A stretch of DNA of 64,000 nt, from contig OZ242356.1 in assembly GCA_965208785.1 (NCBI GenBank), positions 3,138,929 to 3,202,928 of the forward strand. The letters run 5' to 3'. The notes under the pieces are model-generated. The model saw only the letters and a program-made list of their open reading frames with translations, was not told the origin of the DNA and ran no database searches. This stretch comes from Acidimicrobiales bacterium. GTDB lineage: Bacteria > Actinomycetota > Acidimicrobiia > Acidimicrobiales > Bin134. Made by a program: the position numbers and the translations under genes. Below are positions 1,127 through 18,085 of the stretch, piece by piece (the stretch's first letter is position 1; every line of letters starts with the position of its first letter).

Positions 1127-1226
1127 CCCCCACAACCCAACCCAGCACCGACCCCCGCTCGTGGGGCGGCTAGCCCAATCTCAGCCAGCCGACCCCTGAG
1201 CGGGCTGAACCTTCAGCCCGCGGCAG

Positions 1227-2498
1227 TCAGGGGCCCAGCGCGGTAAGGGGTAGAACGGACGTCCCGTCGGGACGGTCGTACCCGTAGCCGGTTGCGGTAA
1301 TGATGAGCAGTTTGGAAGGTGTACCCACCTTTTCGGTATCCACCTTTTGGCTGAGCCTGAGCAGTGAGCTAGCCGCTTCTTCGATCCACTCCTCGCCGCC
1401 GAGCTTGGCTTCAACTGCCATCCACCGACCATCGCGGGCCTCAACGATCATGTCGGCCTCGAGTTTGTCGCTGTCGTGGTAGTGGTAGACGGCGGCATCG
1501 CTGCGCTGCCCATAAATGCGCAGGTCGCGCACCACCAATGATTCGAACAGAAACCCGAGGGTTTCCAGATCTCCTAGCAGCCGGTCTGGCGTGGCGCCGG
1601 TGGCTGCTGCAGCCAATGAAGGATCGACAAAGTGCCGCTTAGGGGAGCGGAGAAGCGTCGCCCGTGACCGAAGATGAGTTGACCAATGCGGCAAGTCTTC
1701 CACGATGAACAGACGCTCCAACGAACGGACATACTCCGTTGCGGTGGTGCGGTTGAGACCTCGTTCTCCCGAGGCCTCTCTAGCCAATTTCGTGTATGAG
1801 GCCATGGTTGAGATGTTTCGGCTGACGGAGGCCACGAGCCGTTGAACTCCGGTGGGGTCGCGCACCACGCCATCTACTGAGGAGATGTCGGTGCGGCATA
1901 TCTCGCCGAGGTAGTTGCGAAGCAGAAGCTGCGCCTCTGGAACCGGTTTGTTGAGATGACGAGGCCATCCGCCACGGCAGATTGCATCGACGACATCGGC
2001 AAAGGAGGCCGCTGGACGATGGGCCGCTACCGCAGCCCCGTCGAGCAGCGACTCGATCGATACTTCACCGGTGCTCTCACCGGTCTCACACAGAGACATC
2101 GGGCGCATCCGCACTCGCCCGATCCGGCCAGCCCCAGAATGCCTGGTGACGTCGTCGACGGGCACAGCAGAGCCGGTGAGCAGAAAACGGCCAGAGCGAT
2201 GCCCCTCGTCACAAGCGTGGCGTACTTGGTTCCAAACATCGTCGGCGAGCTGCCACTCGTCCAACAAGCGCGGCTCTTGCCCGGCCAGAACATAACCCAA
2301 CGTCGTAGAAACAGATCTCCGCGCGTTGAGGTCTTGATCGAACAACACCTCGCTCCTGGCGAAGTTGCGCCCGCTCCACGTCTTGCCGCACCCCTTCGGC
2401 CCCTCAATGACGACGGCGGGCATGGACGCGAGCGTCTCAGCGATCGCCCGGTCGCTGACTCGCGATATGTAGCCCTCGGGCGTGAGCGTTGCAGCCAT
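1227..2498 (-). CDS. AAA-type ATPase, DUF4143-like orphan ATP-binding protein
   Basis: 423-aa ORF with Walker A GPKGCGKTW. Length and C-terminal layout are typical of the AAA_14/DUF4143 family recalled from memory. Confidence 0.65.
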   Translation of the reverse strand: MAATLTPEGYISRVSDRAIAETLASMPAVVIEGPKGCGKTWSGRNFARSEVLFDQDLNARRSVSTTLGYVLAGQEPRLLDEWQLADDVWNQVRHACDEGHRSGRFLLTGSAVPVDDVTRHSGAGRIGRVRMRPMSLCETGESTGEVSIESLLDGAAVAAHRPAASFADVVDAICRGGWPRHLNKPVPEAQLLLRNYLGEICRTDISSVDGVVRDPTGVQRLVASVSRNISTMASYTKLAREASGERGLNRTTATEYVRSLERLFIVEDLPHWSTHLRSRATLLRSPKRHFVDPSLAAAATGATPDRLLGDLETLGFLFESLVVRDLRIYGQRSDAAVYHYHDSDKLEADMIVEARDGRWMAVEAKLGGEEWIEEAASSLLRLSQKVDTEKVGTPSKLLIITATGYGYDRPDGTSVLPLTALGP

Positions 2499-2533
2499 AT
2501 CAAATCCAAGCAGGTGTCGGAATCATTCCTCAT

Positions 2534-2619
2534 CTTACAGTTTCTGAAACCTACAGCCTACACTTTCTGGACTTCTCAGCCTACAGATTCTTGGACTTTT
2601 AGCCTACAGATTCCGAACC
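2534..2619. promoter_or_regulatory. Iteron-like direct repeat array upstream of the DUF4143 ATPase gene
   Basis: Four or five copies of CCTACAGATTCTTGGACTT-like units. Cores lie at 2558, 2581 and 2604, a 23-bp period, 36-120 nt upstream of the start at 2498. Confidence 0.5.
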
Positions 2620-3033
2620 CCAGTCGGAAGCCCTCCGCGAGTTCTTGGACGAATGGGCCGAAGAGACGGGATCGCCGCGCCCCTAAGACGTAGCTGCGAT
2701 GCGCCGCCGGTAATTCACCTAGTGAGCCTCCAAGTTTGGAACCCCACTCTTCCGCACTCACGCCCCATTCCAGTTCTAGAGCCGCACATTTGCGTAACTG
2801 ACGATGACTTGCCGCCAGTCGCAAGGCAGTTTCCCCATTGCGCCACCTCAATGGGCTCCAGCCAGGACACTTCAGGAGACCTCAGCTCTCCGCAACCGGC
2901 ATGGCTTCGCGGACCCTGAGAGCCTCTCAATCCATGCCGCTCTACTTGACGAAGACTTCCCTACGATGCCATCTGATGAAGTCCAGGCGAGGTGCCCGAT
3001 AGCCTGCGACGGGCTGCTTGACTGCCGAACCGC

Positions 3034-4170
3034 CTAGTGGTCCGTCGCTGAATTGGTTGGGGCGGTTATCGTGGGGGGATGGGTGTTGCGTTGGTGTTGT
3101 CCGGTGGCGACCGCGAGGCGTTGGAGCGCATGGCGGGGTCGGGGTCGGAGCCGCATCGTCGGGTGGTTCGGGCCGGGGCGCTTTTGGCTTTGGCCGATGG
3201 CGGTTCGGTGCGGTCGGTTGCCCGGGACATGGGTTTTCACCAGGACACGGTGAGGGGCTGGCGGGACCGGTTCTTGGAGTCGGGGCCCGACGGGGTGGGC
3301 GCGGTGGCGCCGGGGCGGGGCCGCAAGCCCGGGGTTGCGGCGGCTGTGGTGGAGGCGATCGTGGCCGACACGCTGACTGCGGCGCCGGGCGACGGCTCGG
3401 CGTGCTGGTCGACGCGGGCGATGGCCGCCCGCCACGGCGTGGGCAAGGACACGGTGGCGCGGATCTGGCGGGCGCGGGGGCTGCGCCCGTGGCTCGCGGA
3501 CGTGTTCAAGCTGTCCGGGGATCCGGACTTCGAGGCCAAGCTGGTCGATGTGGTGGGCCTGTATCTGGACCCGCCCGAGGCCGCAGCGGTGTTCGCGTTC
3601 GACGAGAAGACCCAGGTCCAGGCCATAGACCGCACCCAGCCCTCTCTGCCCATGGTCCCGGGGCGCAACCGCACCCTCACACACGACTACAAGCGCCGCG
3701 GAACGCTCGACTTGTTCGCCGCGCTCAACGCGGCGACCGGCGAGGTGCTCCACCAGACCCGCAAGCGCCACACCGGAGCCGATGTGCTCGCGTTCTTCAA
3801 ATGGATCGACCTTCACACCCCCCGCCACCTTGACGTCCACATCGTGCTGGACAACCTGTCGGCCCACAAGTCCAAACCCGCGCGCGACTGGCTCGCCCAC
3901 CCCAAGCGCTCCCGCTGGCACCTGCACTTCACCCCCACCTCGGCATCGTGGCTCAACCTCGTCGAGTCCTGGTTCTCAGCACTGACGCGCAAAGCCCTCA
4001 AAACCAACAGCTTCAACTCCATCGCCGAGCTCGCCGACACCATCGACACCTGGACCTCGCACTGGAACCTCGACCCCCAACCACTCACATGGACCACCCC
4101 CGCCAACGACATCATCGCCAAAACCCGCCGAGCACAAACCGCCCTAACCAAATCCGCGACACACCACTAG
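3034..4170 (+). mobile_element. IS630-family insertion sequence, apparently intact
   Basis: Imperfect terminal inverted repeats: CTAGTGGTCCGTCGCTGAATTGGTTGG at 3034, and the reverse complement CTAGTGGTGTGTCGCGGATTTGGTTAG ending at 4170. TA lies at both junctions. One transposase ORF fills the element. Confidence 0.8.
3079..4170 (+). CDS. IS630 family transposase (HTH + DDE)
   Basis: 363 aa. N-terminal HTH region and DDE-like motifs (FDEKTQVQA, DNLSAHKS, WLNLVESWF). The stop TAG lies in the terminal repeat. Confidence 0.85.
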   Translation: MGVALVLSGGDREALERMAGSGSEPHRRVVRAGALLALADGGSVRSVARDMGFHQDTVRGWRDRFLESGPDGVGAVAPGRGRKPGVAAAVVEAIVADTLTAAPGDGSACWSTRAMAARHGVGKDTVARIWRARGLRPWLADVFKLSGDPDFEAKLVDVVGLYLDPPEAAAVFAFDEKTQVQAIDRTQPSLPMVPGRNRTLTHDYKRRGTLDLFAALNAATGEVLHQTRKRHTGADVLAFFKWIDLHTPRHLDVHIVLDNLSAHKSKPARDWLAHPKRSRWHLHFTPTSASWLNLVESWFSALTRKALKTNSFNSIAELADTIDTWTSHWNLDPQPLTWTTPANDIIAKTRRAQTALTKSATHH

Positions 4171-4629
4171 GTCTACCAAAGCATATGAAGCGTACTCACC
4201 ATCACCAGCCGCCTTCGGGCTAACGAGAATGCTCCCCTGATCGTCTATGCCCAGTGCACCGACGTCAAATAGCTCGTGATGTAGCGAACACAACAAGAGC
4301 CCATTTTCCACAAGATCAGGTCCGGCATGCGAATGCCACTTGATGTGTGCACACTCAAGTGCAATCGGAGAACCATTCAATTTAATGTCAAAGCTGCAAA
4401 ATGCACATTTGCTGCCATACGCGTCTCTGACATCAGAAACGAACTTGGGGTCCCGATATCTAGATTCATACGTAACTTTGCGACCTAGGTCTAGTCGTTC
4501 CAAAATCTCGATATGGGAAGTTTCTGGAATCTGCATGCCAAGTAGTCCATTAACGACTCGCGACCGTATCTTCTTTGACTTCAACGCCTCAGCAAACTCC
4601 TGCGTCAGACCGCCAACCGCCTCTTCCAC
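4144..4629 (-). CDS. HNH endonuclease domain protein; 3' end replaced by IS630 sequence, 5' part split from the upstream ORF
   Basis: HNH_2-type motif CAFCSF...ECAHIKWH...ENGLLLCSLHHELFD. The last 9 codons (4144-4170) are encoded by the IS630 terminal repeat. Confidence 0.75.
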   Translation of the reverse strand: MEEAVGGLTQEFAEALKSKKIRSRVVNGLLGMQIPETSHIEILERLDLGRKVTYESRYRDPKFVSDVRDAYGSKCAFCSFDIKLNGSPIALECAHIKWHSHAGPDLVENGLLLCSLHHELFDVGALGIDDQGSILVSPKAAGDGEYASYALVDLVVCRGFG

Positions 4630-4982
4630 TAGAAATGGTCTAGTCTCCCTTGCAGGTGCCTCTGACGAGGAGGTATTGGTTCCTTCATAGCATAAACGTC
4701 TTTGCCATGGCTATCCCTTACTTCCCACAATTCCCTGCTACTAGCCAAGTACACAAATGGGTATTGGACGCGGAGCTTATTACCCAAGACGTGGCCACGC
4801 ATAAACTCGATCAAAGCTGGCTCAGCTTCTCTAAAGGCCACTGACACTGAAGCACCATTCGTTACTCTGGCAATCATCCACAACAACAGCAGAGCCTTAT
4901 AGGGTGCCCGTTGACCATGAGTACCATCGCGCTTGATGGCTTTCACCACCGAAACCCAGTAAGCAGCACTGCGAGAACTCAT
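4629..4982 (-). CDS. Sulfur-binding-domain (SBD)-like N-terminal module of an SBD-HNH type IV restriction enzyme (split ORF)
   Basis: RAPYKALLLLW and QYPFVYL...ELWEV resemble the HKPLLLL / YPFWRL...WE motifs I recall from ScoMcrA-type phosphorothioate readers. The stop TAG overlaps the GTG of the HNH ORF by 1 nt. Confidence 0.45.
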   Translation of the reverse strand: MSSRSAAYWVSVVKAIKRDGTHGQRAPYKALLLLWMIARVTNGASVSVAFREAEPALIEFMRGHVLGNKLRVQYPFVYLASSRELWEVRDSHGKDVYAMKEPIPPRQRHLQGRLDHF

Positions 4983-5000
4983 TCGATTACTACGAAGCCA

Positions 5001-5894
5001 TCAGTTTTGACTATACAGAGCTTCCTCCGCTGCGGAGTACAGCTCCTTCCAATCCACAAAATCCAAGCAATGCGTATGACTCAATTGAGCAATTTTCTGG
5101 CATGACAATCGAGCCGCTTCTCTCCCACCGACTAATTCGACTTGATCTCTATTGTCAGAAAATGCCGCTACCAGTGCAGATCGAGCTCTTTCTGAATTGA
5201 CTGCTGTAACTTGCCTCAACGACAACTCGATCAGTCTTTCCCATAGCTGACCACTCCTCAAGACTCGATGGGCGTCTCGCAAGGCAAGGTCTCGGCCCGC
5301 TTCTCCTGCAAGCGACGATGCGGACGTAGCAAACCGCCATCTCCACCAACCCTTAGCGATAGGGCAATCTAAGAACGAGGTGACGTTGTAACGAACATGG
5401 TGAAGTCCCCCCATGCGACGAAGAAGATTCCTCACCTTTGCTTCCTGTTCCGGAGGGTTGCGGAAGAACACGGTAGCAATGTCTTCGCCAAACATGCCGC
5501 TCGCTATCCAGTGGGCATGACAAAGAGTCCAGAATGCAGGAGTGGCAGCATAGGCGACCGGTATTGCATCGGCCCAAAGACTTCCCAGCTGTTGTTCCGC
5601 ATACTCAGGAAGGCTGGTCTCCATTTCGCCAGCAGTGAGTGGATTAGGAAGTTCCGGAATCTCGACACCCCAGCCTTCTAGAGAGTTGATTGACAATTTC
5701 TCGGCAAAGTAACGCCAGGTAGATTGCGATCCAGAGGTCACCGCTTCATGAAGCAAGAATTGCCGTTGCTCCACTTGTGTTCTACGTTCGATCGCTTCAG
5801 GTGCCTCTTGGTCAGGAAACTCCTTCTTGACATAGATCAGACTTCGTTGCCAATCTTCGTGCCGTTCGACATAGCCATCGAAAAACGCACTCAT
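5001..5894 (-). CDS. Hypothetical protein (operon member, no recognisable domain)
   Basis: 297-aa ORF in the AT-richer segment. Its ATG overlaps the stop of the upstream ORF in ATGA (5891-5894). Confidence 0.6.
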   Translation of the reverse strand: MSAFFDGYVERHEDWQRSLIYVKKEFPDQEAPEAIERRTQVEQRQFLLHEAVTSGSQSTWRYFAEKLSINSLEGWGVEIPELPNPLTAGEMETSLPEYAEQQLGSLWADAIPVAYAATPAFWTLCHAHWIASGMFGEDIATVFFRNPPEQEAKVRNLLRRMGGLHHVRYNVTSFLDCPIAKGWWRWRFATSASSLAGEAGRDLALRDAHRVLRSGQLWERLIELSLRQVTAVNSERARSALVAAFSDNRDQVELVGGREAARLSCQKIAQLSHTHCLDFVDWKELYSAAEEALYSQN

Positions 5895-6679
5895 TGCTGC
5901 GCCTCCGCGACAAAGAGATCGAAAGGTTCCACAGCCGTTGCCGCCAATGCAGGGTCGTAACCTAAGTCATCATCCCAATCCGGTACGCCTGCATCGTCCA
6001 ATCGACCTCTAAGTTCATTCGTCAAACTGTGATCCGCCAATTCTCCACCTTCTGCCATCTTGCTGCGGGGCAAAAGTGCAAACACCGCAACAAGCCCTGC
6101 AATCCTCATGTCCCGGCTCGTCTTGCACTTCTCGAATACATCAGAAGCAAGAGTGACAGTGAATTTTGGGGCATCCGTGGATACGTCAGCAACAGTCATT
6201 TGTCCAGGAGCCAGAGTGTCCTCAGGTGCTCTTTTGAATGTCACTAGACTCACCGTTAGCGACTGGGACCGCCAGATTTCGCCACGAGCACAACGCCAGC
6301 CAGCCGGAATAAACACACGCTCTTCCGCACCCCAAATGTGTGGGTGCAACGAAGCCGTATCCACGTAAGTATCACGAGTGGTGACTAGTCCAGGAATTAC
6401 AAAAACAGATCCGAGTACTTCGTCTTCTTTCCACTGGACAACTTGGTGTTGGCTAGTAGAGGTCCTTACACGGCTCAGCATGGTTCTTGGACACCGGATC
6501 TCCGCATACCACACTGCATCGCCATCCATGACGAGACGAGATAGCTCGGTGGCCCCTAGTACATGATGTCGAATGGTGACTTGTCCGGTCTCGAATCTCA
6601 CCAATGGCCTATATTGAGCCTCCAACCAATCTAGACGGGAATTGGCATCGTCCAGAACTGGGATAGGGGAATGCTCCAT
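5891..6679 (-). CDS. Hypothetical protein (operon member, no recognisable domain)
   Basis: 262-aa ORF starting 5 nt after the GHKL ATPase stop and overlapping the next ORF by 4 nt. Confidence 0.6.
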   Translation of the reverse strand: MEHSPIPVLDDANSRLDWLEAQYRPLVRFETGQVTIRHHVLGATELSRLVMDGDAVWYAEIRCPRTMLSRVRTSTSQHQVVQWKEDEVLGSVFVIPGLVTTRDTYVDTASLHPHIWGAEERVFIPAGWRCARGEIWRSQSLTVSLVTFKRAPEDTLAPGQMTVADVSTDAPKFTVTLASDVFEKCKTSRDMRIAGLVAVFALLPRSKMAEGGELADHSLTNELRGRLDDAGVPDWDDDLGYDPALAATAVEPFDLFVAEAQQ

Positions 6680-6684
6680 ACTTT

Positions 6685-8592
6685 CTAACTTTCGGCACGT
6701 CTGCGATAGACAACGATTTCGGCATCACTCAGGTTGGTGATATCCGTAGCAACTTCCACGTCCAACCGTTGATGGAAGGGTTCAGCTGGAAGGAGCAATT
6801 CGACTTCTCCTCCGCGGGCCTCTGCCTCGACTCTGTGACCCTCTCCCGTGGTAACTCTCCTCAAGGGCAAATACGAGTCCCCAAATCGTTGTTCACAGCT
6901 GGCATCCGACCCTGAAGGGATGCTGACGCTAATTCCGATTTGCCCCTGGCCAATACTCTCATCATCGATCTGGATTTCGAATCTCACGGTCTTCGGTCCT
7001 ACAACCACCGGAGGCAGAGTTCGGTATCGGGGCACAGTTCCTCGCCGCGGCGTGCCTAGTTGGCGCTGTCGCTTCTTCCCCTTCTTCCTTGTCTTCTCTC
7101 CACGTAAGATATCTCCCGACTGCTTTCCGCCCCCAGATGGTGGCCGTGCCCTAGTGACCTTCTCCCCCCCCGTTGTCACTGACCGCGAGAATTCGGCGAA
7201 TCCCGGTGGAGTGTACTCATCAGTCTCTTCGGCTTGTCCTGCTGCATCACGGATTCTATCGGCTAGATCATCAAGCAAAGTGTCCAATTCCTTACGGTCG
7301 GCCTTGCTCAATCTTGTTCTGTCAATACCCCTGTGTTCTGGACCCTCTGCGTCTCGAATTAACTCTTCCTCTCGGCCATCATCTAGAACTATCACAGCGT
7401 CAAAGGGTCTACATCCAGCAAAGTCATTGGGATACAACCTGGGGGCTGATGAAGTGATCCACATCCCTTTTCGGAACAAATGTACCCTGCTTCCAATTCG
7501 TTTTTCGTGTTCTATAGAGCGGCACCATATTGTCTCGCCGCCTACCCTCTCTAACGACGGCACTTCAGAGATTGTCCGCCATGCCCTGAATGCATGCTCA
7601 CCTGTGATCTGGCCGCGTCCGTCTGCTCTCAGTCGGCTCGAGTACCGTTCTAGAATCTGACCAAGATTTCGAGAATTAATGGTCAATTCGTCCCCTGATC
7701 TCTCGTCATATATATTTACTGTCATTTTTTCCTGGAATATAGCCGCAGAAAAATTCGAAGCTGCAACACGAGCTATTGTTTCGACAGAAGTTGGATCATC
7801 ATCATCACGATGAAAGTCATTGAATCCAAGAATGCATACTACAGTCCCTGTGTTTGGCATACTTTCAAGTGGTGCTGCAAGTAGCGCTGGAGGACGCGAG
7901 GAGTAGTAATTGTGGTCATTTGTGAATGACAATTGACCCTTGCGAAACCAATATCCATCGGCTCCTCGGCGTTGATCTTTCTCAGAAGGGTGAGGATGCG
8001 ATGCCAATACAGCATGACCAGATACTAGAGTACCTAGTTCTCCATTCTCTTGATAGCGTGCACCGTACAAGACGTAACGCATATTGGAAGCGGCAAATGC
8101 AGCGTTGTGCCCTACGCCAAAGCTCCCAGCTCCTCCATCCCCTTTGCCCGAATTTCCCTCTGTCAATAGACGGTCCATTCTTTGTCCATCTAACCCGTGG
8201 CCATTGTCTATACAGAGCAAAGCATCAACTGTCTTGTTATCCAGTACCTCCTGTATACGTTCCACGATCATATTCTCGTCGTGAGAAGGAAGACCTTCAT
8301 TGTTCCACTCTTTTCTATCCATCAATGAGAGTTCAAATGCTTCTACATACTGATCCAACCCTGGAACCATCGAATACGGAACGGGAAAGACGTTGAATGC
8401 AATCTCTGCGGGGCGACCTGCCTTATCAGCAGCATCTAGTGAGTTTTGAATTAATTCCCTTACCACTGGTTCCGCTGAACCGTCAAAGTGGGCTAAGGCA
8501 GCGCTAGTAAACCCAACTGGCCGGCGAGATAGATCAAAAACGAGTCCCGCGTCTTCAATCGGTGCAGTCACACGCTGGCGTGCCTGTGGCAT
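6685..8592 (-). CDS. GHKL (Bergerat-fold, MutL/MORC/Hsp90-like) ATPase with a large C-terminal extension
   Basis: N-box RELIQNSLDA, G1 box IDNGHGLDG, G2 box GAGSFGVGHNAAF. Basic patch KTRKKGKKRQRQ near the C-terminus. The ATG at 8592 is preceded by GGAAGGGG. The ORF track starts at 8616. Confidence 0.75.
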   Translation of the reverse strand: MPQARQRVTAPIEDAGLVFDLSRRPVGFTSAALAHFDGSAEPVVRELIQNSLDAADKAGRPAEIAFNVFPVPYSMVPGLDQYVEAFELSLMDRKEWNNEGLPSHDENMIVERIQEVLDNKTVDALLCIDNGHGLDGQRMDRLLTEGNSGKGDGGAGSFGVGHNAAFAASNMRYVLYGARYQENGELGTLVSGHAVLASHPHPSEKDQRRGADGYWFRKGQLSFTNDHNYYSSRPPALLAAPLESMPNTGTVVCILGFNDFHRDDDDPTSVETIARVAASNFSAAIFQEKMTVNIYDERSGDELTINSRNLGQILERYSSRLRADGRGQITGEHAFRAWRTISEVPSLERVGGETIWCRSIEHEKRIGSRVHLFRKGMWITSSAPRLYPNDFAGCRPFDAVIVLDDGREEELIRDAEGPEHRGIDRTRLSKADRKELDTLLDDLADRIRDAAGQAEETDEYTPPGFAEFSRSVTTGGEKVTRARPPSGGGKQSGDILRGEKTRKKGKKRQRQLGTPRRGTVPRYRTLPPVVVGPKTVRFEIQIDDESIGQGQIGISVSIPSGSDASCEQRFGDSYLPLRRVTTGEGHRVEAEARGGEVELLLPAEPFHQRLDVEVATDITNLSDAEIVVYRRRAES

Positions 8593-9916
8593 AACGCCCC
8601 TTCCTGCTGATTCCATTTATTGAAACTTCTGTGTATGAAAGAGTATTGACTCCAAAGAAGCCGAAGCGAGAGTTCCCACTGCCATCTCGTGCAGGCGTTA
8701 CTCGCGCATATCTATTTTCAATGTCTGCCCACCAGCCAATATCCGTCGGAGTGCAAGATCTCCGTTGAGGGTCTTCGGAAGACGCGATCGCTCCAAGGAT
8801 ACGGGTTCCTTTCATGAAGCAATAGACGCAGTTACCAGCTCCGGCTGGCACACTCAAGTCAAATGACTGCGACTTCCAAAAGTCGATAATGGAATCGGTG
8901 TCTAGACCGGCATCATGGAGGGGGAAGTACGGTCGTTCTCCTGGGGGTTGTGTACGTACCGTGCACTTCGCAGAGGTAGCTCCTTCCGCAAAGAGCGTTC
9001 TCGATAAGACTCGATCTACTCGAGGGGACTCGTCAGCACGAAGGCCCAGAAGTCGTATGTGAAGTGCTCCATTGGGTCCGCGCATGGGCGCTGGAGGACC
9101 TGGCTTCCCCTCTGGGACTGGAGCTGATGTGAAATCCCTCCAGAGCTGAGCCGGACGAGAAGAGGGTTTCTGGTCTAGGTGTTCCGCACGCATGAGAATT
9201 TGGTCTGGAGGGGTGCGACCACCCATCCGAGCGTGTGTCGCGACAGCCTCACCTACATCAGCCAAGTTGACTCCCCAGTGATGGCCTGCGTGAACGGGGC
9301 CAGGAGTTTCGGCGATCCATTCCGAGAGCAACTCGTGTGATGGATATAACTTCAGCTTTGCGGTGCACGTCCTAGAGTGAGGGTTTGGCAGCATCCCCTG
9401 GAGCGCCAACATCTCCTCAAATACCTCACCCGAGGATCGGAATCCCTCCGGATCGTCCTCAACGGGTACCGGCTTGACCAGGCGGTAAGACGCTCGGCGA
9501 CGGTATTCGGACCGCCAGGCGTCCTCTACAGTGCAAAATTCGAACCAAAAGAACGGAATTCCAAATTCTGATTCGATCCTCTCCTTACATCGAGCAGCAA
9601 ATTCATACGTTCCTGGATGTTCGGCAGAGGTGTTGGCAAATAGAACTGCGTCGCCCCGAGACGGCCTCAGGACGCCAGCCTCGGCCAGCATGAACGTGAG
9701 GGCGGCAGAGGATCTGCCACCTGAAAAGCTGACAAAGTGTGGCAGCGCCTCATGTGATGGATGTCGGTACAGAACCGACAACTGCTCTGAAATGCCAGCG
9801 GGAACATCATCAAGAACCTGAGGCCCAGGAGCCGCAGGCGTAACAACGGCACCCATTACGGCCGTCACCTCCTCCCCTCCCTCACGGTACCCACGTGGCG
9901 CTTGCGCAACCCACAC
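8555..9916 (-). CDS. PAPS-reductase-family PP-loop ATP pyrophosphatase, DndC-like
   Basis: PP-loop SFSGGRSS, plus TCTAKLKLYP, LGLRADESPRV and FPLHD...DFW. Cys motifs GNCVYCF and the C-terminal CDC are present. An alternative ATG at 9856 follows GGAGGAGG. Confidence 0.7.
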   Translation of the reverse strand: MWVAQAPRGYREGGEEVTAVMGAVVTPAAPGPQVLDDVPAGISEQLSVLYRHPSHEALPHFVSFSGGRSSAALTFMLAEAGVLRPSRGDAVLFANTSAEHPGTYEFAARCKERIESEFGIPFFWFEFCTVEDAWRSEYRRRASYRLVKPVPVEDDPEGFRSSGEVFEEMLALQGMLPNPHSRTCTAKLKLYPSHELLSEWIAETPGPVHAGHHWGVNLADVGEAVATHARMGGRTPPDQILMRAEHLDQKPSSRPAQLWRDFTSAPVPEGKPGPPAPMRGPNGALHIRLLGLRADESPRVDRVLSRTLFAEGATSAKCTVRTQPPGERPYFPLHDAGLDTDSIIDFWKSQSFDLSVPAGAGNCVYCFMKGTRILGAIASSEDPQRRSCTPTDIGWWADIENRYARVTPARDGSGNSRFGFFGVNTLSYTEVSINGISRKGRYATGTPACDCTD

Positions 9917-10065
9917 AGATTTCTCATGTCTTCCATAGCGACAGCAGATTACTTCTCAGCTACGACAAATAGGCGCACCGGGACACCAAATCGGCCAGAG
10001 TCGGCCCGTCTGGCCAACATGCCACTGCCTCATAGCCAATGCCCATCGAGCAATCTGAAGGCCGA

Positions 10066-11257
10066 TGAGCTTCCCCCCTTTTCGTGGGGAGGTTGGTTGT
10101 GAGGATTGGCGGTGTGGGTCGTCTCGTGTTCTACGGGTGGGGCCATTCCGGTTGCGGAGTGGAGGCGGTGGTGGTTGTACCAGCCGCAGGCCCGCAGCGT
10201 GATTTCTTGGCGGGCTTGGGCTTTGGTGGCCCGGGCCCGGCGGTCGATGGGCTCGTGGGTGAGTGCGGGGGAAGAACGACTCGGCCGGGGCGTTGTCCAG
10301 GGCGTTGCCGGTCCTTTCGGAGGGTCGGGCGATGCCGAGCCGCCGGCAGGCGGCGGCGAAGGCCCCTGCGGTGTATTGCGGCCCCTTGTCGGAGTGAAAG
10401 ACCACGCCGTCGATGTTCCCGCCCCGTGTGGCCGCCGCGGTGTCGGTCGCGGCCTTGGCCGGCTCCGCGGCCGGATAGCGGTTCGAGGCGGCGAACCCGG
10501 CCATGCGCCGCGGGCGCAGGTCCAGCACCGTCGCCAAAAACACCGGGCCCTCGGCGGTCTTGACCTCTTCGAAGTCGCCGCACTGCTTCTGGTTGATCCC
10601 CGAAGCGCTGAAGTCCCGCCGCAATAGGCCTGTCGGGGCCGCACCGCCGGGGTTCCGGCCGGTCAGGCCCTTCTTCTTTTTGGGGCGGGCGCACAGCCCC
10701 CGGCGGGCCATCGGCGCCTCCACCGTCTTCTTCGACACCGACACGCCGTCTCGGCGCAGCTGGGCCCGCACCCCGGGCGACCCGCAGGCCCCCTGGGAGC
10801 GGTCGAACGCCTTTTTGACCTGGGCATCGGCCGCCCGACGGCGGACCTGCATCGGCGCCGGCGGCCGGTCGAGGTGCTTGTAGAACGTCGAGGGAGCAAC
10901 ATCCAGCGCCCGGCAAGACACCGCGTGAGGCACTCCGCGGTCGGCCCTCCGGGATGCGATGAACCCTGCGGCCACCGCGTCGCCCCGCTCACCCAACCGA
11001 CCACGGATCGCTTGAGGACATCGCGCTCCATCCCCCGGCTCGGCCACCCTCATGCGGAGCCGGGCCAGCTCGGCCCGCTCGCCTGCCGACAGCCCGCCGG
11101 CCCGCCCGCCCCGGTCCCGGCGCACCCAGTTCCCCAGCGCGCCCTCACACACACCGAGCCCCCGGGCCACATGGGCCACCGCCCGGCCGGCCTCCTCGAC
11201 GATCCGAACAGCCCCATCTCGGAACTCCCGGCCGAAACTTCTTCGCAGTCCGGACAT
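10066..11257 (-). pseudogene. IS3 family transposase with multiple frameshifts
   Basis: OrfA-like N-terminus (FRDGAVRIVEE...). DDE core HSDKGPQYTAGAF...DNAPAESFF is in one frame. The C-terminal WYNHHRLHSATG is in another frame (ORF 10030-10644). Confidence 0.75.
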
Positions 11258-11302
11258 AACTCCCCCTCATAGAGCATGCCTCCACGAAAAGAGGGGAACC
11301 TC
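10066..11302 (-). mobile_element. IS3-family insertion sequence, degraded
   Basis: Terminal inverted repeats TGAGCTTCCCCCCTTTTCGTGGGGAGG (10066) and the reverse complement TGAGGTTCCCCTCTTTTCGTGGAGG (ending 11302). No matching target duplication was seen. Confidence 0.7.
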
Positions 11303-11735
11303 ACCCGGACCGCCCGCAGTCCGCATAGCAGGCCCGGCAGATCGCCCCTGCGCACACCCTGTAGCCAGACTCGCGCAGCTCCGCTGAGATCGCATGGGGC
11401 GACAGGCGCTCTATGAGGCGGTCCCGCACCAGCCGGCAAAGCCCGGCGTCTGCGGCCAGCTTCGGAAGCCCCGGCCTCCCAGCCGCCACACCGGCCCGGG
11501 CCCGCGCCCCGACGGCGCAGCACGCGCCCGGCGCGCACCGCTTGCGCTCCCCCCAGACCGTCGCCCGGCCCCTTCCCAGCAGCGCCGCGATCCGCGCATC
11601 GCCGAAACCCCGGGCCGCCAGCACCTCGATCCGGGCGCGCTCGCCCGCACCTGAACGCCGTGCCACACTGAACACCTCCACCGGTCGGTCGCAGACATAG
11701 CTGACCGGCCATTCTGGCCGGTCCGTCGCGACCAC
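11301..11735 (-). pseudogene. IS30 family transposase, N-terminal HTH fragment truncated by the IS3 insertion
   Basis: IS30-type N-terminus (ERARIEVLAARGFGDARIAALLGRGRATVWGERKR...LSPHAISAEL). The ORF ends at the IS3 right end (11302). Confidence 0.6.
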
Positions 11736-12317
11736 CGGTGGAGTTCACCGCCTTCTGTGTGAACGCTGCAGTGCAGTCATCAGATATGGCTTTGTAGACC
11801 TTTGAGGCTGATGTGACGCCCTGCGTGGCGGAACCAACAAGCACCTCCGGAATCCACGTCGCCTCTCAGAGGCTCCACCCTCCCCTAACGGTCTCATCAG
11901 CATTCCGATGACACGGGCACTTCAAGCAGGAGAATTCACACAATCCCGTTCCCACACAGAGACCCTGTCATGTACCGAGCAAGCTGACCTTCCGTGCAAT
12001 CGCAATCCTCGGACAGCACCTGCAGACCCCCTCACACCAACACGATCCGTCCCCATGCTTCCTTGCCAGCCCACCAACTGGCGTGTCCGGCAAGGCCGAA
12101 TACACCACTAGCCCTCCCCAATATCCCCTCAATTCACACATCTGCTATATTTCGATGTGGATCTGTATCGCATAGAGTGATGCCTTGTTGGAGCAAGACG
12201 GGGCCTGCACTACATCAAAAACGGCATAACACCTAAAGAACTAAAGTGTAGTTCACTCTTCGATCTACTCAAGATCAAGCTTCAGAGCCAACAATCATCA
12301 AGTTACGGAGGGTATCT

Positions 12318-14279
12318 ATGAGTGACGACTCCTTTTCCGAGCTATTGACCTTAATTGACAAGGGACATCTGCGTCTTCCTCAATTTCAAAGAGAATTTGT
12401 CTGGACCCATAAGCAAGTGAGAGAGTACTTGGACTCCTTGTATCGCGGCTACCCATCTGGGTCAATCCTGATTTGGAAAAAGACCGATACCGATACTATT
12501 CTGGTAACCCGAGGCGACGACACCAGCCCTCCTATCCCTCTACAGCTCTTGCTAGATGGACAACAGAGAATCACAACTCTGTATTGCATCGTAAAGGGGC
12601 AAGCACCTGACTTTTTTACGGGTAATTTCAACGTCTTCAAGAATCTATATTTTCATCTTGAAGAGGAGGAGTTCCAACATGTGAGGTCAAATGTCAAGGA
12701 AGACCCCCTTTACATCGATGTCATGGAATTCTATCAAGAGGATCTTATGCACTATTTCAATATGGTCCAGTCTTTGGAAACTAATGATGCCACTAAGAGC
12801 AAATATCTCATGAGACTCAACACCCTAAACAACATACCCGATAAGAGCGCCAATATTGACACATTTACCGACAGCATTCTTGATCCGCATGCTCCCATTG
12901 ATGGGGTAGTGGAGATCTTCAGCCGTCTGAATACTAACGGGAAAAAGTTGACAGACGTTGACATCACTTTAGCGAGAATGGGGGTCGAGTGGCCTGAAGT
13001 TAGGGAGGATTTGTCCTCAAAGATCGAAGAATGGAAAGGTAAGCTAAGCACGCGAGCCTCTTATGATAAATCCCCCCTCGATTTGAAATGGCTCATGCGA
13101 ACTGCCGTTGTTGTAAAATATGGCAAGACTGATTTCGATGAATTGTGGAAAAATGATTCCGAGGACGTCAAGAGCGGATTCGAAATCACCTATCGATGCA
13201 TTGATCGTACACTCAATCTCCTTGCAGACCGACTTGGACTCGACCGCTCACATGTGATCCTTTCTCCATATGCGCTGCCTGTGATCTGTCGATGGATGCA
13301 GAAAGTGGGCAGAAAGTCGAACTCGGTTGATGAAGGGCTTATCCTAGCTTGGTACATTAGAGCAGCGATTCGGAAGCGTTTTGGGAGTGCTACAGATGAC
13401 GCCATCCAAAAATACACTACCCTTATTGATGCGAACGAACTGTCGCAGTTGGACGACGATCTGGATCAATGGATTCAACAACAAGGATTCCACCCCAACA
13501 TTCACGCTGATGATTTCGCTGGTTCGGGCACTCGCCGGTCTGGGCCTTCGCAGATCTTTTTGTCCATTCTGCATATGATGACAAGAGTCGATGGTGCTCG
13601 TGATCTTTGCAATGGGAACGCGTTAACCTCTTATTTGCATGGTCCTCGATCCAAGTTAGAACTTCATCACATATTTCCTCAGCAATATCTTCTGGATAAT
13701 GGCGTAAAGGACGAAAAGGTCATTGACGCTCATGCGAATCTTTGCTATCTTACTGCTGACTCCAACCGCCAAATCTCAGATTCGCCGCCCAGCGACTACT
13801 TGAACGAAGCGGAACAGATGCACAGTGGTGTACTCCGATCTCAGTGGATTCCACTTGATTCCGATCTTTGGAAGACTGAGAACTATCTCGAGTTTCTCAG
13901 GCAACGACAAGTCTTGATGGCTCAGGCAGTCAGTGATTTTCTTGACCGCACGCGAAATGGAGACCTTTCCAGCGAACGCGGATCACATATAACAGGACCC
14001 CCATCGCAAATCGAATCTCTTGACAAGCGATTGGCCGCTGTCGTTGAACTCTGTGAAGAGCTTGGCCTATCTGAGCCAATTACAAATCATGAATTTGCAG
14101 ACATCAGTTCCTCTTATGCACTTGACTTGGCATGGCCAGACGGTCTCCAGGAAGGACTTACGCCTCCGGTCGCTTATCTACTTGAGGCAAACGAAGAAGC
14201 CGCTCGGTGGCAGGGAATCGAAGGATGGCGCTTCTTCTTCACCTATGAGACTTTTGAGGAATACGCCCGAAGCTTGTGA
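12318..14279 (+). CDS. GmrSD/SspE-like type IV restriction-type nuclease (DUF262 + DUF1524)
   Basis: DUF262 motifs LPQFQREFVW and DGQQRITTLY. DUF1524 His-Me motif LELHHIFPQ...NLCYLTADSNRQIS. GGAGG RBS precedes the ATG. The segment is AT-richer. Confidence 0.8.
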   Translation: MSDDSFSELLTLIDKGHLRLPQFQREFVWTHKQVREYLDSLYRGYPSGSILIWKKTDTDTILVTRGDDTSPPIPLQLLLDGQQRITTLYCIVKGQAPDFFTGNFNVFKNLYFHLEEEEFQHVRSNVKEDPLYIDVMEFYQEDLMHYFNMVQSLETNDATKSKYLMRLNTLNNIPDKSANIDTFTDSILDPHAPIDGVVEIFSRLNTNGKKLTDVDITLARMGVEWPEVREDLSSKIEEWKGKLSTRASYDKSPLDLKWLMRTAVVVKYGKTDFDELWKNDSEDVKSGFEITYRCIDRTLNLLADRLGLDRSHVILSPYALPVICRWMQKVGRKSNSVDEGLILAWYIRAAIRKRFGSATDDAIQKYTTLIDANELSQLDDDLDQWIQQQGFHPNIHADDFAGSGTRRSGPSQIFLSILHMMTRVDGARDLCNGNALTSYLHGPRSKLELHHIFPQQYLLDNGVKDEKVIDAHANLCYLTADSNRQISDSPPSDYLNEAEQMHSGVLRSQWIPLDSDLWKTENYLEFLRQRQVLMAQAVSDFLDRTRNGDLSSERGSHITGPPSQIESLDKRLAAVVELCEELGLSEPITNHEFADISSSYALDLAWPDGLQEGLTPPVAYLLEANEEAARWQGIEGWRFFFTYETFEEYARSL

Positions 14280-14804
14280 GGTGATACCTCTTGTCCTGAA
14301 CACTCAATCAACCTAGGCGGCACCATTGCCGATGTGACGGATTTCTTTGCCGAAACAGCGACAAGAGAGCGATGTGGAATTGCCGGAAGGTTTGTGCCAC
14401 GACTCGCCACCACAGGCAATTGTCATTCGCGTCAGTACACTCGTGACATAGATTTTGGGGCTGTGACCTGCGGACACGGCAGGGATGGGGTGTGTATTGA
14501 TGCGGTGGACGTGGCTGCGTCGGATGATGCCACCTTGGACGTTCGGCTGTGTTGGCTCGGCTATGGGTAGTTACGGCAGGAGTTGCTCAAGCGCCGACTA
14601 GTTCGGTGACCTTCGGGGCGCACGAATACTCTCTGACCGCCAGAAGGACTTTGCGGTGCCGACCCAGCAAGACAAGGAGCATCCCCATCGTGATACTGGG
14701 ATCCACAGGAATGGGTTCGTCTTTCGAAGGGCATGCTCGGAGGCTTGATCGAGGGATGGTCTCAAGAATGGCCTCTTGGGACATCCGGTCCAGGCGGATA
14801 TGAT

Positions 14805-15044
14805 GTGCTGGTGCCAGTAACTCTCGAGCTCCCTGACAATGTGGTGGCTCGTCTTCGCCGCGAGGCCGACAGTCGGGGCGTGAGCTTGGACGAACTCGTG
14901 ACTGAATTGGCATCGCTGCTTCCCCTTTCGCCAACACCGGTTGGCCACCGTACTTTGGGATTTGTCGGCATCGGAGCTTCAAACTCAAGCTTCAATGCCG
15001 CCAACGCAGACGAGATCCTCGCCGAGGGTTTCGGACGCAGCTGA
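14805..15044 (+). CDS. vapB: Ribbon-helix-helix antitoxin, VapB-like
   Basis: VTLELPDNVVARLRREADSRGVSLDELV is an RHH signature. The stop lies 4 nt before the likely PIN toxin start. GTG start inferred; the ORF track starts at 14733. Confidence 0.65.
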   Translation: MLVPVTLELPDNVVARLRREADSRGVSLDELVTELASLLPLSPTPVGHRTLGFVGIGASNSSFNAANADEILAEGFGRS

Positions 15045-15048
15045 ACTC

Positions 15049-15459
15049 TTGCTGGTTGTAGACACCGGGGTCCTGCTAGCTGCGGCTGACTCCAGCGACC
15101 CTGATCATGTTGCATGTGCATCACTATTGGCCACAGAACCCGGACCGCTCCTTGCCTCCCCGCTTGTAGCCGCCGAAGCGGCCTACCTCATCGGACGCCA
15201 ACTGGGCACGTTTGCCGAGTCAGCCTTCATGCGCTCGATCGCTGCTGGAGAAATCACTATGGAGACCTTGACCGCGGCTGAGTTGGTTGCGGTCTCGGAT
15301 CTGATTGACCGCTACTCCGACCTAGGGCTGGGTGCGACTGATGCCTCTGTCGTGGTTCTTGCCGCGCGACATGAAATCCGACGAATCGCAACCCTCGATC
15401 GCCGCCACTTCAGTGTCGTGCGCACTATGACCGGAAAGAGCTTCGAGCTCGTGCCATAG
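15049..15459 (+). CDS. vapC: PIN-domain ribonuclease toxin, VapC-like
   Basis: LLVVDTGVLLAAAD, GATDASVVVLA and TLDRRHF are PIN acidic-residue motifs. Start inferred as TTG at 15049 and is uncertain. Confidence 0.7.
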   Translation: MLVVDTGVLLAAADSSDPDHVACASLLATEPGPLLASPLVAAEAAYLIGRQLGTFAESAFMRSIAAGEITMETLTAAELVAVSDLIDRYSDLGLGATDASVVVLAARHEIRRIATLDRRHFSVVRTMTGKSFELVP

Positions 15460-15484
15460 AAGAGCGCTTCGCGTACTTTTTTTG

Positions 15485-15880
15485 CTATGCAGCCAGAACT
15501 TCGTTGACGATCTTGTAGCCGCTGATGACCGTCATGCCATTGCTCCGGGGGAAGCGCAGCGGTGTGCGCTTGCGGGCTGGTTCCGCCACGATATCGGCGG
15601 CGCGGAACACCTTGCTTATGGTCGTTGCCATCTTCTTCAGGGTCCCGTCTAGCGAGTCGGCGTCGGCAACAAGGAACCAGATCCGCAATTCTCCGGTGTC
15701 GGCTTGACCGAACACACCGCAGTCTGAAATCAGGCCGTGCAGACTGTCCGACACCTTCTCGAACACCGCATCGTATTCGTCCCTACTGAGCGGTTGCTCT
15801 CGCCCTTCGGACCTGCGAGCCAGCACGCCCGTGACAGTGACTTCCATGATCGGGTCGCTCATGCCACCTCCTTGGTGCAA
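15485..15880 (-). CDS. Hypothetical protein
   Basis: 131-aa ORF with no recognisable motif. Confidence 0.35.
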   Translation of the reverse strand: MHQGGGMSDPIMEVTVTGVLARRSEGREQPLSRDEYDAVFEKVSDSLHGLISDCGVFGQADTGELRIWFLVADADSLDGTLKKMATTISKVFRAADIVAEPARKRTPLRFPRSNGMTVISGYKIVNEVLAA

Positions 15881-15964
15881 GTCAGTGCGGACATCTGTCG
15901 ATGTCGGCTTGCCGGTTGACGAGCGTGCGCTGTGAAGACGGTGTGAGGGGGATGGACACTGGGT

Positions 15965-16213
15965 CTATCCGACGGATCGGTTCATGGCCCCGAAGTCGGC
16001 GAAGTCGCGGCCGATCCTGATAAGGGAAAACTCGCCTTCGCCGAACTGCTCATAGCCGGCGATGTTCGCAGTTTCAAGGTCGGCATACACACCATCAGGA
16101 TGGCCATCGCGCATGAGGGCGATTCTGCCACGGTCGTCCCGCTCCAAGCGCACGCGGTGGTCGGACTCGTAGGCGGCTCGGTTCATCTGGGCCTGATCCA
16201 GTTCACCCTGCAT
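15965..16213 (-). CDS. Hypothetical small protein
   Basis: 82-aa ORF upstream of 15485-15880 on the same strand. Confidence 0.35.
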   Translation of the reverse strand: MQGELDQAQMNRAAYESDHRVRLERDDRGRIALMRDGHPDGVYADLETANIAGYEQFGEGEFSLIRIGRDFADFGAMNRSVG

Positions 16214-16398
16214 GCCTTGCCTCCAGGGTCTTTCCCACAGCCTGGATGCTACTGTCGCGGAAGCACTTTTGCGGGTTGGTGATGGAGGCGACCAGGCGCT
16301 CCACTACAGGGCAGATCACGAACCGGGCGGCTGGGGTTCGTCTTTGTGACTTTCTAGCTCTCGCAATCCGACGACTTGTCACCTGCTTGTCACACTGT

Positions 16399-16433
16399 CG
16401 CGAAGTCTTATCACATTGTGACAAGACTTCGCG
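16399..16433. promoter_or_regulatory. 35-bp near-perfect palindrome in a divergent intergenic region
   Basis: CGCGAAGTCTTaTCACAtTGTGAcAAGACTTCGCG, preceded by two direct TTGTCAC copies. Lies between the minus-strand start at 16213 and the plus-strand start at 16520. Confidence 0.5.
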
Positions 16434-16519
16434 CAACATGTACTAAGTAGTGATATGTTAACCAAACATGACTGCAAGCTTCCAAAGATGAAACCAGCCC
16501 AAATCAATTCGAAACCGCA

Positions 16520-18043: not shown

Positions 18044-18085
18044 ACCCGACGAAAGCCCACGCCAGCGGCCTCCAAGTTGGGGGAC

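Follow-up and report, generated by a model that had tools for sequence, protein, structure and literature searches.

A conserved PAPS-reductase/GHKL gene cassette of sponge-associated bacteria: a candidate architecture for phosphorothioate-type DNA modification and defence

Introduction

Six consecutive open reading frames (ORFs) on the minus strand of a 64,000-nucleotide stretch of contig OZ242356.1 (assembly GCA_965208785.1, an Acidimicrobiales bacterium; positions 3,138,929 to 3,202,928, hereafter the window) raise the question of whether a PP-loop enzyme, a GHKL ATPase, two proteins without recognised motifs, and a nuclease of the type that reads phosphorothioate (PT) DNA belong to a DNA modification or defence system not previously described. 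An earlier note, made from the sequence alone, had proposed that they do, and its main inference largely stands up. We describe here a conserved four-gene cassette, A-B-C-D, in which a PP-loop enzyme of the 3'-phosphoadenosine 5'-phosphosulfate (PAPS) reductase family (A) is joined to a GHKL ATPase (B) and two further proteins (C and D). With a probability that we put at roughly 0.55, ABCD represents a new architecture of PT-type modification and defence, in which A would be the writer, B-C-D its surveillance partner, and the readers interchangeable.

Four PT systems are established (Dnd, Ssp, Tdp, and BREX type 4), three of which pair the writer with a P-loop ATPase (PMC12914056). PAPS-reductase-domain enzymes are essential for PT synthesis in dnd and ssp, as is BrxP in BREX type 4, and TdpC alone suffices as the PT writer in tdp (PMC12914056). 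The latest systematic search for PT systems required a P-loop NTPase neighbour and used UniProt (PMC12914056), so a GHKL-based cassette such as ABCD would escape it. The literature covered, which leaves out most subscription journals, gave no prior account of PDC-M33 (a candidate system considered below), of DUF6339, or of a PAPS-reductase/GHKL or phosphorothioate/GHKL system.

Results

The operon is real. Its six minus-strand ORFs lie at the positions given in the earlier note (8555-9916, 6685-8616, 5891-6679, 5001-5894, 4629-4982, and 4144-4629), but they make up five genes, the last two being parts of a single gene for a nuclease with a sulfur-binding domain (SBD) and an HNH domain (Table 1). 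A and B overlap by 62 nt when B is read from its first ATG and by 38 nt when it is read from the second (8592); the other junctions, a 5-nt gap (6680-6684), an ATGA overlap (5891-5894), and a 1-nt overlap at 4629, are also as described, and every motif that had been quoted is present in the translations. The segment is AT-richer than its surroundings, with a GC content of 0.51-0.54 over 4-10 kb compared to 0.65-0.70 in most of the window. The low-GC segment is larger than had been claimed: synteny with L086, the locus most closely related to that of the window, places it at approximately 1190-18095 (loci are identified here by L numbers). As had been noted, an IS630-type insertion sequence (IS) with a DDE_3 transposase lies on one side of the operon, and an IS3-type transposase with HTH_Tnp_1 and rve domains on the other. 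A promoter and terminator scan of 2800-12400 gave signals at chance level only.

Table 1. Features of the window locus.
Feature	Coordinates	Strand	Evidence
Gene A, PAPS-reductase-family PP-loop ATP pyrophosphatase, SspD-like	8555..9916	-	PADLOC SspD 2e-8, PAPS-reductase motifs
Gene B, GHKL (Bergerat-fold) ATPase, Hsp90/sacsin type, 643 aa	6685..8616	-	PADLOC PDC-M33A 8e-32
Gene C, 262 aa, predicted N-terminal β-sandwich (~residues 17-177) and helical C-terminal part	5891..6679	-	PDC-M33B family, AlphaFold2
Gene D, 297 aa, predicted all-α, divergent DUF6339 member	5001..5894	-	DUF6339/PDC-M33C family matches, AlphaFold2
SBD-HNH pseudogene, 5' part (sulfur-binding winged helix-turn-helix domain)	4659..4982	-	NCBIfam NF045808 PT-DNA_restrict 1e-7
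SBD-HNH pseudogene, middle (linker and HNH domain), -1 frame, ends at IS630 junction	4167..4656	-	NF045808 2e-40, Pfam HNH_2 6e-10
SBD-HNH pseudogene, displaced 3' end (~last 30 codons)	2946..3037	-	phmmer to L086 HNH residues 271-301
IS630-family insertion sequence	3038..4166	+	Pfam DDE_3 and HTH domains; ends from synteny break with L086; transposase ORF 3079-4170
IS3-family transposase ORF (9956-11257) and adjoining remnant ORF	9956..11844	-	Pfam HTH_Tnp_1, HTH_21, rve
BrxU/GmrSD-type DUF262 type IV restriction enzyme, 653 aa	12318..14279	+	Pfam GmrSD_N 2e-29, PADLOC HEC-05 2e-39, PDB BrxU 7p9k 2e-7

Co-occurrence of the four upstream genes in other genomes had been set beforehand as a test of the proposal. 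We used a sample of 83 loci, 80 from a genome scan and 3 fetched earlier. A-B-C-D was found in that order and on one strand in 77 of them, and three of the six exceptions are contig ends. The hosts belong to six phyla: Actinomycetota (Acidimicrobiia), Chloroflexota, Gemmatimonadota, Acidobacteriota, Verrucomicrobiota, and Pseudomonadota. Across loci, the A/B, B/C, and C/D junctions have a median gap of approximately -1 nt, with an overlap in about half of the cases. The ratio of nonsynonymous to synonymous substitution rates (dN/dS) was 0.04-0.15 for all four genes when the window was compared with its two closest relatives (A, 0.09 against L086; B, 0.08; C, 0.13; D, 0.15). The immediate flanks of the cassette are very diverse and often consist of housekeeping genes, indicating that the cassette moves as a unit, and its GC content is lower than that of the flanks in 55 of 67 loci. 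Nearly all carriers are metagenome-assembled genomes (MAGs) of sponge-associated lineages, a distribution that suggests habitat-specific horizontal spread within sponge microbiomes. The four genes A-B-C-D are the core of the system; the SBD-HNH gene, which adjoins the cassette in 11 loci only, on either side and on either strand, is an optional add-on.

A chance juxtaposition of unrelated genes in a defence island must be considered here, as the island in the window is itself a patchwork of IS elements and unrelated defence genes. This explanation is effectively refuted by the conservation of gene order across phyla with different flanks, by the overlapping gene junctions, and by the purifying selection on all four genes. 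More elaborate arrangements were also found. Three sponge-MAG loci have the order BCD-A-BCD (L005 5962-14888, L079 2669-11614, and L081 6227-15145), with paralogous triads that are only ~25-28% identical to window B, and L048 contains two complete ABCD sets and an extra D. The tandem BCD-A-BCD arrangement suggests one writer serving two surveillance complexes.

The A ORF encodes 453 amino acids (aa) from a GTG codon. The start is probably the ATG at 9856, which has a GGAGG ~11 nt upstream, and the conserved core of the protein begins near residue 46. The motifs SFSGGRSS, NTSAEH, RTCTAKLK, and GLRADES are invariant or nearly so and are collinear with those of PAPS reductases, the SGGxxS signature together with the collinear motifs placing A in the PAPS-reductase/PP-loop superfamily. 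Pfam PAPS_reduct (PF01507) matched only the first 55 residues, at 5e-4 and 20.5 bits compared to a cut-off of 22.5. The PADLOC model for SspD was matched by all 26 A proteins tested, although weakly and partially (best 9e-12), the match of window A falling in two short stretches. The BrxP model was matched weakly by 4 of the 26 (0.0027, PP-loop region only), the PADLOC DndC models by no A-family member tested, and a search of PDB sequences with the A family profile matched no PP-loop protein. By profile comparison, then, A is related to SspD but is not its orthologue. The NCBIfam CysH and CysD models did not match window A, which together with the sub-threshold Pfam score and the uniform SspD matches sets the protein apart from the assimilatory enzymes, as had been anticipated. 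A housekeeping role in sulfur assimilation is effectively refuted.

Alignment of 76 A sequences demonstrated that Cys184, Cys363, and Cys366 are invariant and that Cys318 and Cys451 are conserved in 97% and Cys449 in 92%; Cys449 and Cys451 lie in a C-terminal CDCTD tail. An iron-sulfur (Fe-S) site and a sulfur-relay cysteine dyad have been described for DndC (PMC10853773). By analogy, Cys184, Cys318, Cys363, and Cys366 of A may hold an Fe-S cluster and Cys449/Cys451 may constitute a sulfur-relay dyad. The protein is ~150 residues longer than the SspD model and contains a ~100-residue insert in addition to the CxCTD tail.

The A family has more than 689 members among 90%-identity clusters, none of which carries a functional name (the few that are named are each a 'hypothetical protein') or a Pfam domain, and it comprises 149 clusters at E<=1e-30 among 1.84 billion representatives. 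The cassette is not obviously phage-borne: no relatives of B were found on viral contigs, and the PAPS-reductase relatives of A found there are all short and distant (27-41% identity). The viral relatives, on loci L089-L101, are ~210-280 aa in length. Another relative, at L084 7959-8795, is flanked by thymidylate synthase and dihydrofolate reductase genes on plasmid pANAM02 of a Bosea sp. isolated from the sponge Callyspongia, a gene context that hints at a nucleotide or DNA modification role on mobile elements.

The identification of B as a Bergerat-fold protein was confirmed. B contains Bergerat motifs I-III (E/N box, DxGxG, GxxGxG) and is thus a GHKL protein; residues E54, N58, D61, D137, G141, G164, G167, and G169 are invariant and G139 is conserved. 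A MORC-type affiliation is not supported, and B is instead Hsp90/sacsin-like. The B family profile was closest to the Hsp90 N-domain 3ied (6e-4) and B matched the NCBIfam sacsin-like ATP-binding domain at 3e-5, whereas the family profile gave E>0.2 with MutL, topoisomerase VI-B, and MORC (E>0.3 for the MORC subfamily). Pfam HATPase_c was found in 14 of 25 B members. The middle and C-terminal parts (last 350 residues) have the conserved motifs R382-x-GMWI, PFDA, EGPEHR, and SGSD.

C and D diverge far more rapidly than A; a word-index search recovered only 6 relatives of C and 13 of D. The AlphaFold2 model of C has a predicted local distance difference test score (pLDDT) of 80.5 and a predicted template modelling score (pTM) of 0.60, and Foldseek against the PDB found only generic FN3/cytokine-receptor β-sandwiches (E>=2e-3, TM score ~0.26). 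D was modelled with a pLDDT of 88.7 and a pTM of 0.85, and had no Foldseek neighbour in the PDB (best E=0.76) or among the BFVD viral models (best E=1.3); its conserved motifs (RRxGGL..VRG, DCP..AWWR) are rich in Trp and Arg. No catalytic or nuclease signature was recognised in the models or fold searches of C and D, and their family profiles gave nothing meaningful against PDB sequences. The predicted folds of C and D provide no functional assignment.

The two proteins are not the orphans that they had appeared to be. PDC-M33, of which RefSeq contains 98 instances, is a three-gene candidate that was put forward on the basis of 'guilt by embedding' and is as yet untested (Payne et al., bioRxiv 10.1101/2024.01.29.577857). 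It is defined as a GHKL protein (PDC-M33A), a ~285-aa protein (PDC-M33B), and a DUF6339 protein (PDC-M33C) encoded consecutively. B matches PDC-M33A (Table 1). PDC-M33B was matched by 28 of 41 members of the C family, with window C at 1e-3. In the D family, 8 of 41 members matched Pfam DUF6339 and 1 of 41 PADLOC PDC-M33C, window D itself giving no match. The link of C and D to PDC-M33 thus relies on hidden Markov model matches across family members; hhalign comparisons of the C and D profiles with PDC-M33 proteins of Ligilactobacillus were too weak to use. By the definition above, B-C-D is a divergent member of PDC-M33 to which A is extra, and A is therefore the new part. The earlier statement that the operon matches no known system has to be revised to this extent, the profile search placing B-C-D in a PADLOC candidate, but the pairing with a PP-loop enzyme is new.

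The annotated PDC-M33 examples are on plasmids of Ligilactobacillus, Lactococcus, Priestia, Deinococcus, and Arthrobacter, and sit inside or beside restriction-modification (R-M), abortive infection (Abi), and Shedu genes. Three of the five PDC-M33 loci that we examined (L103, L104, and L105) lie beside dcm genes, and in L085 PDC-M33 occurs with a type I R-M system. A conserved helical protein of ~76 aa (ERFRRLAE..LIGNLANRNNYDY) is encoded directly upstream of the GHKL gene in L103 (6744-6974), L104 (6669-6896), and L105 (6725-6955). This protein is outside the three-family PDC-M33 cassette listed in the supplement of Payne et al., and it occupies the position that gene A has in the sponge-type cassette.

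Protein fusions provide information on the substrate of A. P0180 (L106 8001-10472) consists of an HhaI-like DNA C5-methyltransferase (E=9e-35; motifs FSGIGG, PCQ, ENV, QRY..GNAV) fused to a complete A domain that includes the CxCTD tail, and window A aligned end to end with its C-terminal half (32% identity, E=2e-72). P0203 and P0185 have the same arrangement by motif reading, the PDB support for P0203 being one 57-residue stretch (E=6e-4). All three proteins are from AT-rich genomes. These fusions point to DNA as the substrate of A. The P0180 gene region in L106 is plasmid/phage-like (Rep3_C, pRha, topoisomerase, SSB, secretin) and is without B-C-D, which suggests that the writer can act alone, and a fusion of the P0180 type may place two different marks on DNA.

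Restriction modules linked to PT, of three unrelated kinds, are found next to the cassette: SspE (a PT-sensing nuclease with DUF262 and DUF1524), PbeA-like helicases, and SBD-HNH nucleases. A full-length SspE is encoded beside ABCD in L086, L002, L010, and L062 (PADLOC 7e-264); the L086 gene is directly upstream of A and its product matches PDB 6jiv over its full length (E=1e-173). PbeA-like DEAH helicases are found beside ABCD in L051, L054, L056, and L058 (PADLOC 1e-150, 3 members). In L056 and L058 the helicase gene is followed by a 68-aa ORF and a ~755-aa gene, which have the size and order of pbeB and pbeC and are possible pbeB/C-like candidates. Dnd loci have HKD-SF2 helicases and wHTH(SBD)-SAD-HNH nucleases directly downstream, the HNH type in 698 taxa (PMC10853773), an HKD/SF2-helicase of the PbeA type has been described downstream of dnd modification genes (PMC6459918), and the BREX-4 study cloned brxP and brxC along with an mcrA homologue (PMC12914056). 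The SspE, Pbe, and SBD-HNH neighbours of ABCD match the pattern around the Dnd modification genes, and so support A as a PT writer. A search of ±10 kb in the reader-flanked loci found no PAPS-reductase-like PP-loop gene other than A; a single further PP-loop ORF turned up in this range, a QueC-like one in L062. No DndA/D/E, SspABC, or BREX core gene was found among the window operon genes with PADLOC, and none of these, including SspB/C and the Dnd genes, appears in the Pfam lists of L002 and L086, as the earlier note had stated for the operon.

The commonest neighbour of ABCD in Acidimicrobiia is a ~515-aa protein family that has DUF262/GmrSD_N only. Its gene lies directly upstream of A on the same strand in L001, L002, L004, L006, L007, L008, L011, L014, and L082. 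The family is not SspE and has only a weak N-terminal match to BrxU.

These neighbours and fusions bear on two alternatives for the activity of A. The first is that A acts off DNA, adenylating, conjugating, or thiolating a protein, nucleotide, or RNA, with B-C-D as an abortive-infection-type sensor and effector. QueC-like PP-loop enzymes have a role in protein, nucleotide, or RNA adenylation or conjugation in some defence systems. PP-loop enzymes in general serve many substrate classes, for example ThiI, MnmA, Ncs6, and TtcA (PMC12914056), B is closer to chaperone-type GHKL proteins (Hsp90/sacsin) than to the DNA-acting MutL or MORC, and the generic β-sandwich predicted for C is a fold that commonly serves in protein binding. 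The fusion of A-type domains to DNA C5-methyltransferases, the best profile match of A to the DNA-acting SspD, and the recurrence of PT-DNA readers beside the cassette make this alternative very improbable.

The second alternative is that A writes a mark other than PT, through an adenylated phosphate or base and another nucleophile, and that B-C-D and the DUF262 or HNH neighbours read that mark. Consistent with this, the relationship of A to SspD, DndC, and BrxP is distant, the protein has its ~100-residue insert and unique CxCTD tail, the commonest neighbour is the 515-aa DUF262-only family rather than SspE, and Dnd-like cores without DndC possibly use a different DNA modification or mechanism (PMC10853773). 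However, both the conserved Cys dyad and the cysteines that may bind an Fe-S cluster are compatible with sulfur chemistry, and the SspE, PbeA-like, and SBD-HNH families, all three of which flank ABCD, are reported to be PT-sensing or PT-dependent. We consider a non-PT mark improbable, and favour PT as the mark written by A.

The HNH gene had been correctly assigned to the SBD-HNH family of PT-DNA nucleases (NF045808, ScoMcrA-like), but it is not part of the core and in the window it is a pseudogene that has been hit twice, not one intact ORF. When aligned with its orthologues in L086 and L087, which are intact, 302 aa long, and carry Pfam DNA-SBD_ScoMcrA and HNH_2, the gene shows a 1-bp deletion between 4657 and 4656 that splits it. 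In addition, IS630 breaks the gene near its 3' end, leaving the last ~30 codons beyond the element; by blastn L086 15721-15812 corresponds to window 3037-2946 (94.6%), and the L086 homology stops at window 4167. The inactivation is recent, since dN/dS compared with the intact L086 orthologue is still low (0.10-0.19).

Comparison of the window with L086 and L087 allowed the history of the locus to be traced. By synteny all three lie at one chromosomal site, which has MgtE/PhoU genes on one side and a 5'-nucleotidase gene on the other, and window A is 92% identical to L086 A over its full length and 96.6% over the conserved core. The gene order in L086 is SspE-A-B-C-D-HNH, while L087 has an HATPase_c_3 gene where L086 has SspE. 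Directly upstream of A lies IS3 in the window and sspE in L086. No sspE remnant was detected in the window, where the region from A to the conserved flank (~9956-18095) contains IS3 remnants, the BrxU-like DUF262 enzyme, a PIN-domain gene, and other ORFs. The SspE-ABCD-HNH genes of L086 form a single low-GC block (0.48-0.54 compared to 0.63-0.68), which suggests that they arrived together. The ancestral block in the window's lineage would then have been SspE-ABCD-HNH, with sspE since lost and the HNH gene freshly inactivated. The window retains an apparently intact and constrained ABCD, with both reader nucleases lost or dead.

Several other genes accompany the operon in the window. The BrxU-like gene at 12318-14279, on a second low-GC block (12-14.5 kb, GC 0.45-0.48), is divergent from the operon with IS3 remnants between, and shares the island with the cassette without belonging to the core. 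We considered this gene as the SspE of the system and rejected it, as it is BrxU-like and has no SspE match. A gene encoding a DUF4143 protein with an AAA_14 ATPase domain (1227-2498, minus strand) is an insertion relative to the syntenic L086; the family is also found directly downstream of ABCD in four other loci, one of them probably L003, and could represent either a companion that recurs or a gene that is mobile. The PIN-domain gene (14941-15459, plus strand) is overlapped upstream by a 103-aa ORF (14733-15044), the pair looking like a VapBC-type toxin-antitoxin module with a putative antitoxin. A 507-aa ORF (16520-18043, plus strand) has by-eye motifs of the AlbA_2/Schlafen and HATPase_c_4 'RecG-like' family (e.g. 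NALMHRDY), and a protein of the AlbA_2/HATPase_c_4 family is encoded directly upstream of ABCD in L003.

Discussion

We propose that A-B-C-D constitutes a mobile four-gene unit resembling an R-M system, to which the variable neighbours are add-ons. By analogy to DndC, SspD, BrxP, and TdpC, A would adenylate a phosphate of the DNA backbone with ATP and swap a non-bridging oxygen for sulfur, producing PT. The sulfur would come from a housekeeping cysteine desulfurase by way of the C-terminal Cys-x-Cys tail of A. B-C-D would be an ATP-driven DNA-surveillance partner of A, with a role like that of BrxC, PglZ, and BrxL in BREX type 4, helping the writer on self DNA and excluding unmarked DNA; its main job could be either to target the writer or to act on unmarked DNA. 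SspE, the Pbe-like genes, and SBD-HNH would serve as interchangeable extra restriction arms. The PT chemistry, Fe-S cluster, sulfur relay, roles of B, C, and D, and defence phenotype in this model are all predictions from sequence. We had also considered that ABCD marks invading DNA for destruction by the HNH or GmrSD enzymes, and dropped this idea because most loci are without such a nuclease and because the presence of SBD-HNH and SspE beside PT writers has a simpler precedent.

Several points weigh against the proposed model. The assignment of PT draws on homology and gene neighbourhood. A matches SspD weakly and over part of its length, its Pfam PAPS_reduct match is below the cut-off, and no PP-loop protein in the PDB was matched by sequence, so that a different nucleophile or target is possible. 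A recognised PT-reader neighbour is present in only ~15% of loci (~24% if the DUF262-only genes are counted), and defence islands collect type IV enzymes anyway. The check for other PT writers covered ±10 kb around the cassette in the reader-flanked loci, and canonical dnd, ssp, or brxP genes may lie elsewhere in the MAGs. No cysteine desulfurase is linked to the cassette, and the same is true of many dnd and ssp loci. Fold and profile searches recognised no nuclease or effector domain in B, C, or D, making a restriction role for BCD conjectural. Finally, an intact PT-dependent HNH nuclease beside a PT writer could be self-toxic if it is ScoMcrA-like.

A potential concern is whether B-C-D restricts DNA, or whether all four proteins form a modification machine in which B-C-D scans or targets for A, replacing DndD/DndE or SspB/SspC, and restriction comes from the neighbours only. 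The writers of Dnd, Ssp, and BREX-4 need an ATPase partner (PMC12914056), separate PT-dependent restriction modules do flank ABCD, and B, C, and D have no recognised effector domain. The DndD-DndE core also occurs without DndC, when it is often coupled to cytosine methylases (PMC10853773), which is reminiscent of the three PDC-M33 loci beside dcm. On the other hand, an A domain fused to a methyltransferase is found on a mobile element where B-C-D is absent, and TdpC works alone, so a writer may need no scanner; PDC-M33 was defined from triads in systems that have their own target-recognition subunits, such as the type I R-M system of L085; and ~75% of ABCD loci lack a restriction partner that can be recognised, which would leave most of them as 'orphan' modification modules. 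We regard a purely modifying function as unlikely, and prefer a B-C-D that takes part in surveillance.

If the proposed model is correct, a GHKL ATPase together with proteins of uninformative or unmatched fold widens the known ways in which backbone marks are targeted and used. A more ambitious interpretation, which we hold tentatively and at somewhat less than even odds, is that ABCD is a fifth, mechanistically distinct route to marking the DNA backbone (with PT or a new relative of it), in which B-C-D is a portable mark-aware engine for various writers, PAPS-reductase enzymes here and methyltransferases elsewhere, and which has spread horizontally in the sponge microbiome across six phyla. 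The cassette appears to be a defence or epigenetic system characteristic of sponge symbionts. The window would represent a locus caught losing its reader nucleases while keeping the writer cassette, and the SspE-ABCD-HNH block of L086, at ~9 kb, is small enough for heterologous testing.

Comparison with known systems

The cassette is not a member of Ssp, Dnd, or BREX type 4. It resembles Ssp in that SspD is the best, though weak and partial, profile match of A (26 of 26) and in the same logic of a writer and a PT-sensing nuclease, full-length SspE being present beside the cassette in four loci that include the closest relative of the window, but not in the window itself. It differs in having neither SspB (a DUF4007 nickase) nor SspC (an AAA+ ATPase), neither of which was matched by PADLOC among the window operon proteins, and no linked SspA; B, C, and D are the partners instead. 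Dnd and the cassette both have a PP-loop writer with conserved candidate Fe-S cysteines and a cysteine dyad, and PbeA-type helicase and SBD-HNH partners are common to both. In contrast to Dnd, the cassette is without the DndD ABC ATPase, DndE, and DndB, and the PADLOC models for DndC, DndD, and DndE matched no operon protein and no A-family member tested.

In BREX type 4 a PAPS-reductase-type writer likewise replaces the methyltransferase in a multi-protein, ATPase-based exclusion system. An mcrA homologue was cloned there along with brxP and brxC, comparable to the SBD-HNH gene that follows D here, and the BREX core also exists without the PAPS-reductase enzyme, as B-C-D does in the form of PDC-M33. 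BrxC, PglZ, and BrxL were not matched in the window operon with PADLOC, BrxP has a DUF4007 domain whereas A does not, and the ATPase of the cassette is of the GHKL rather than the P-loop type. No TdpA/B-like genes were noted with the cassette, using search libraries that contain no Tdp model. Tdp, a system of thermophiles in which TdpC is the writer and TdpA/TdpB the restriction pair, provides a precedent for a single PAPS-reductase-type writer, in keeping with the methyltransferase-A fusions that stand alone.

A PP-loop gene is missing from PDC-M33, where a small gene of ~75-80 aa lies upstream in four of the five loci examined and is conserved in three of them, and the B-type sequences of PDC-M33 are very divergent from B of the cassette (~20-26% identity). 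PDC-M33 has no assigned function or mechanism. Its gene order and sizes (~650 aa, ~285 aa, and a DUF6339 protein) match the sponge-type B-C-D, and the model proposed here would supply the first functional hypothesis for this orphan PDC-M33/DUF6339 candidate.

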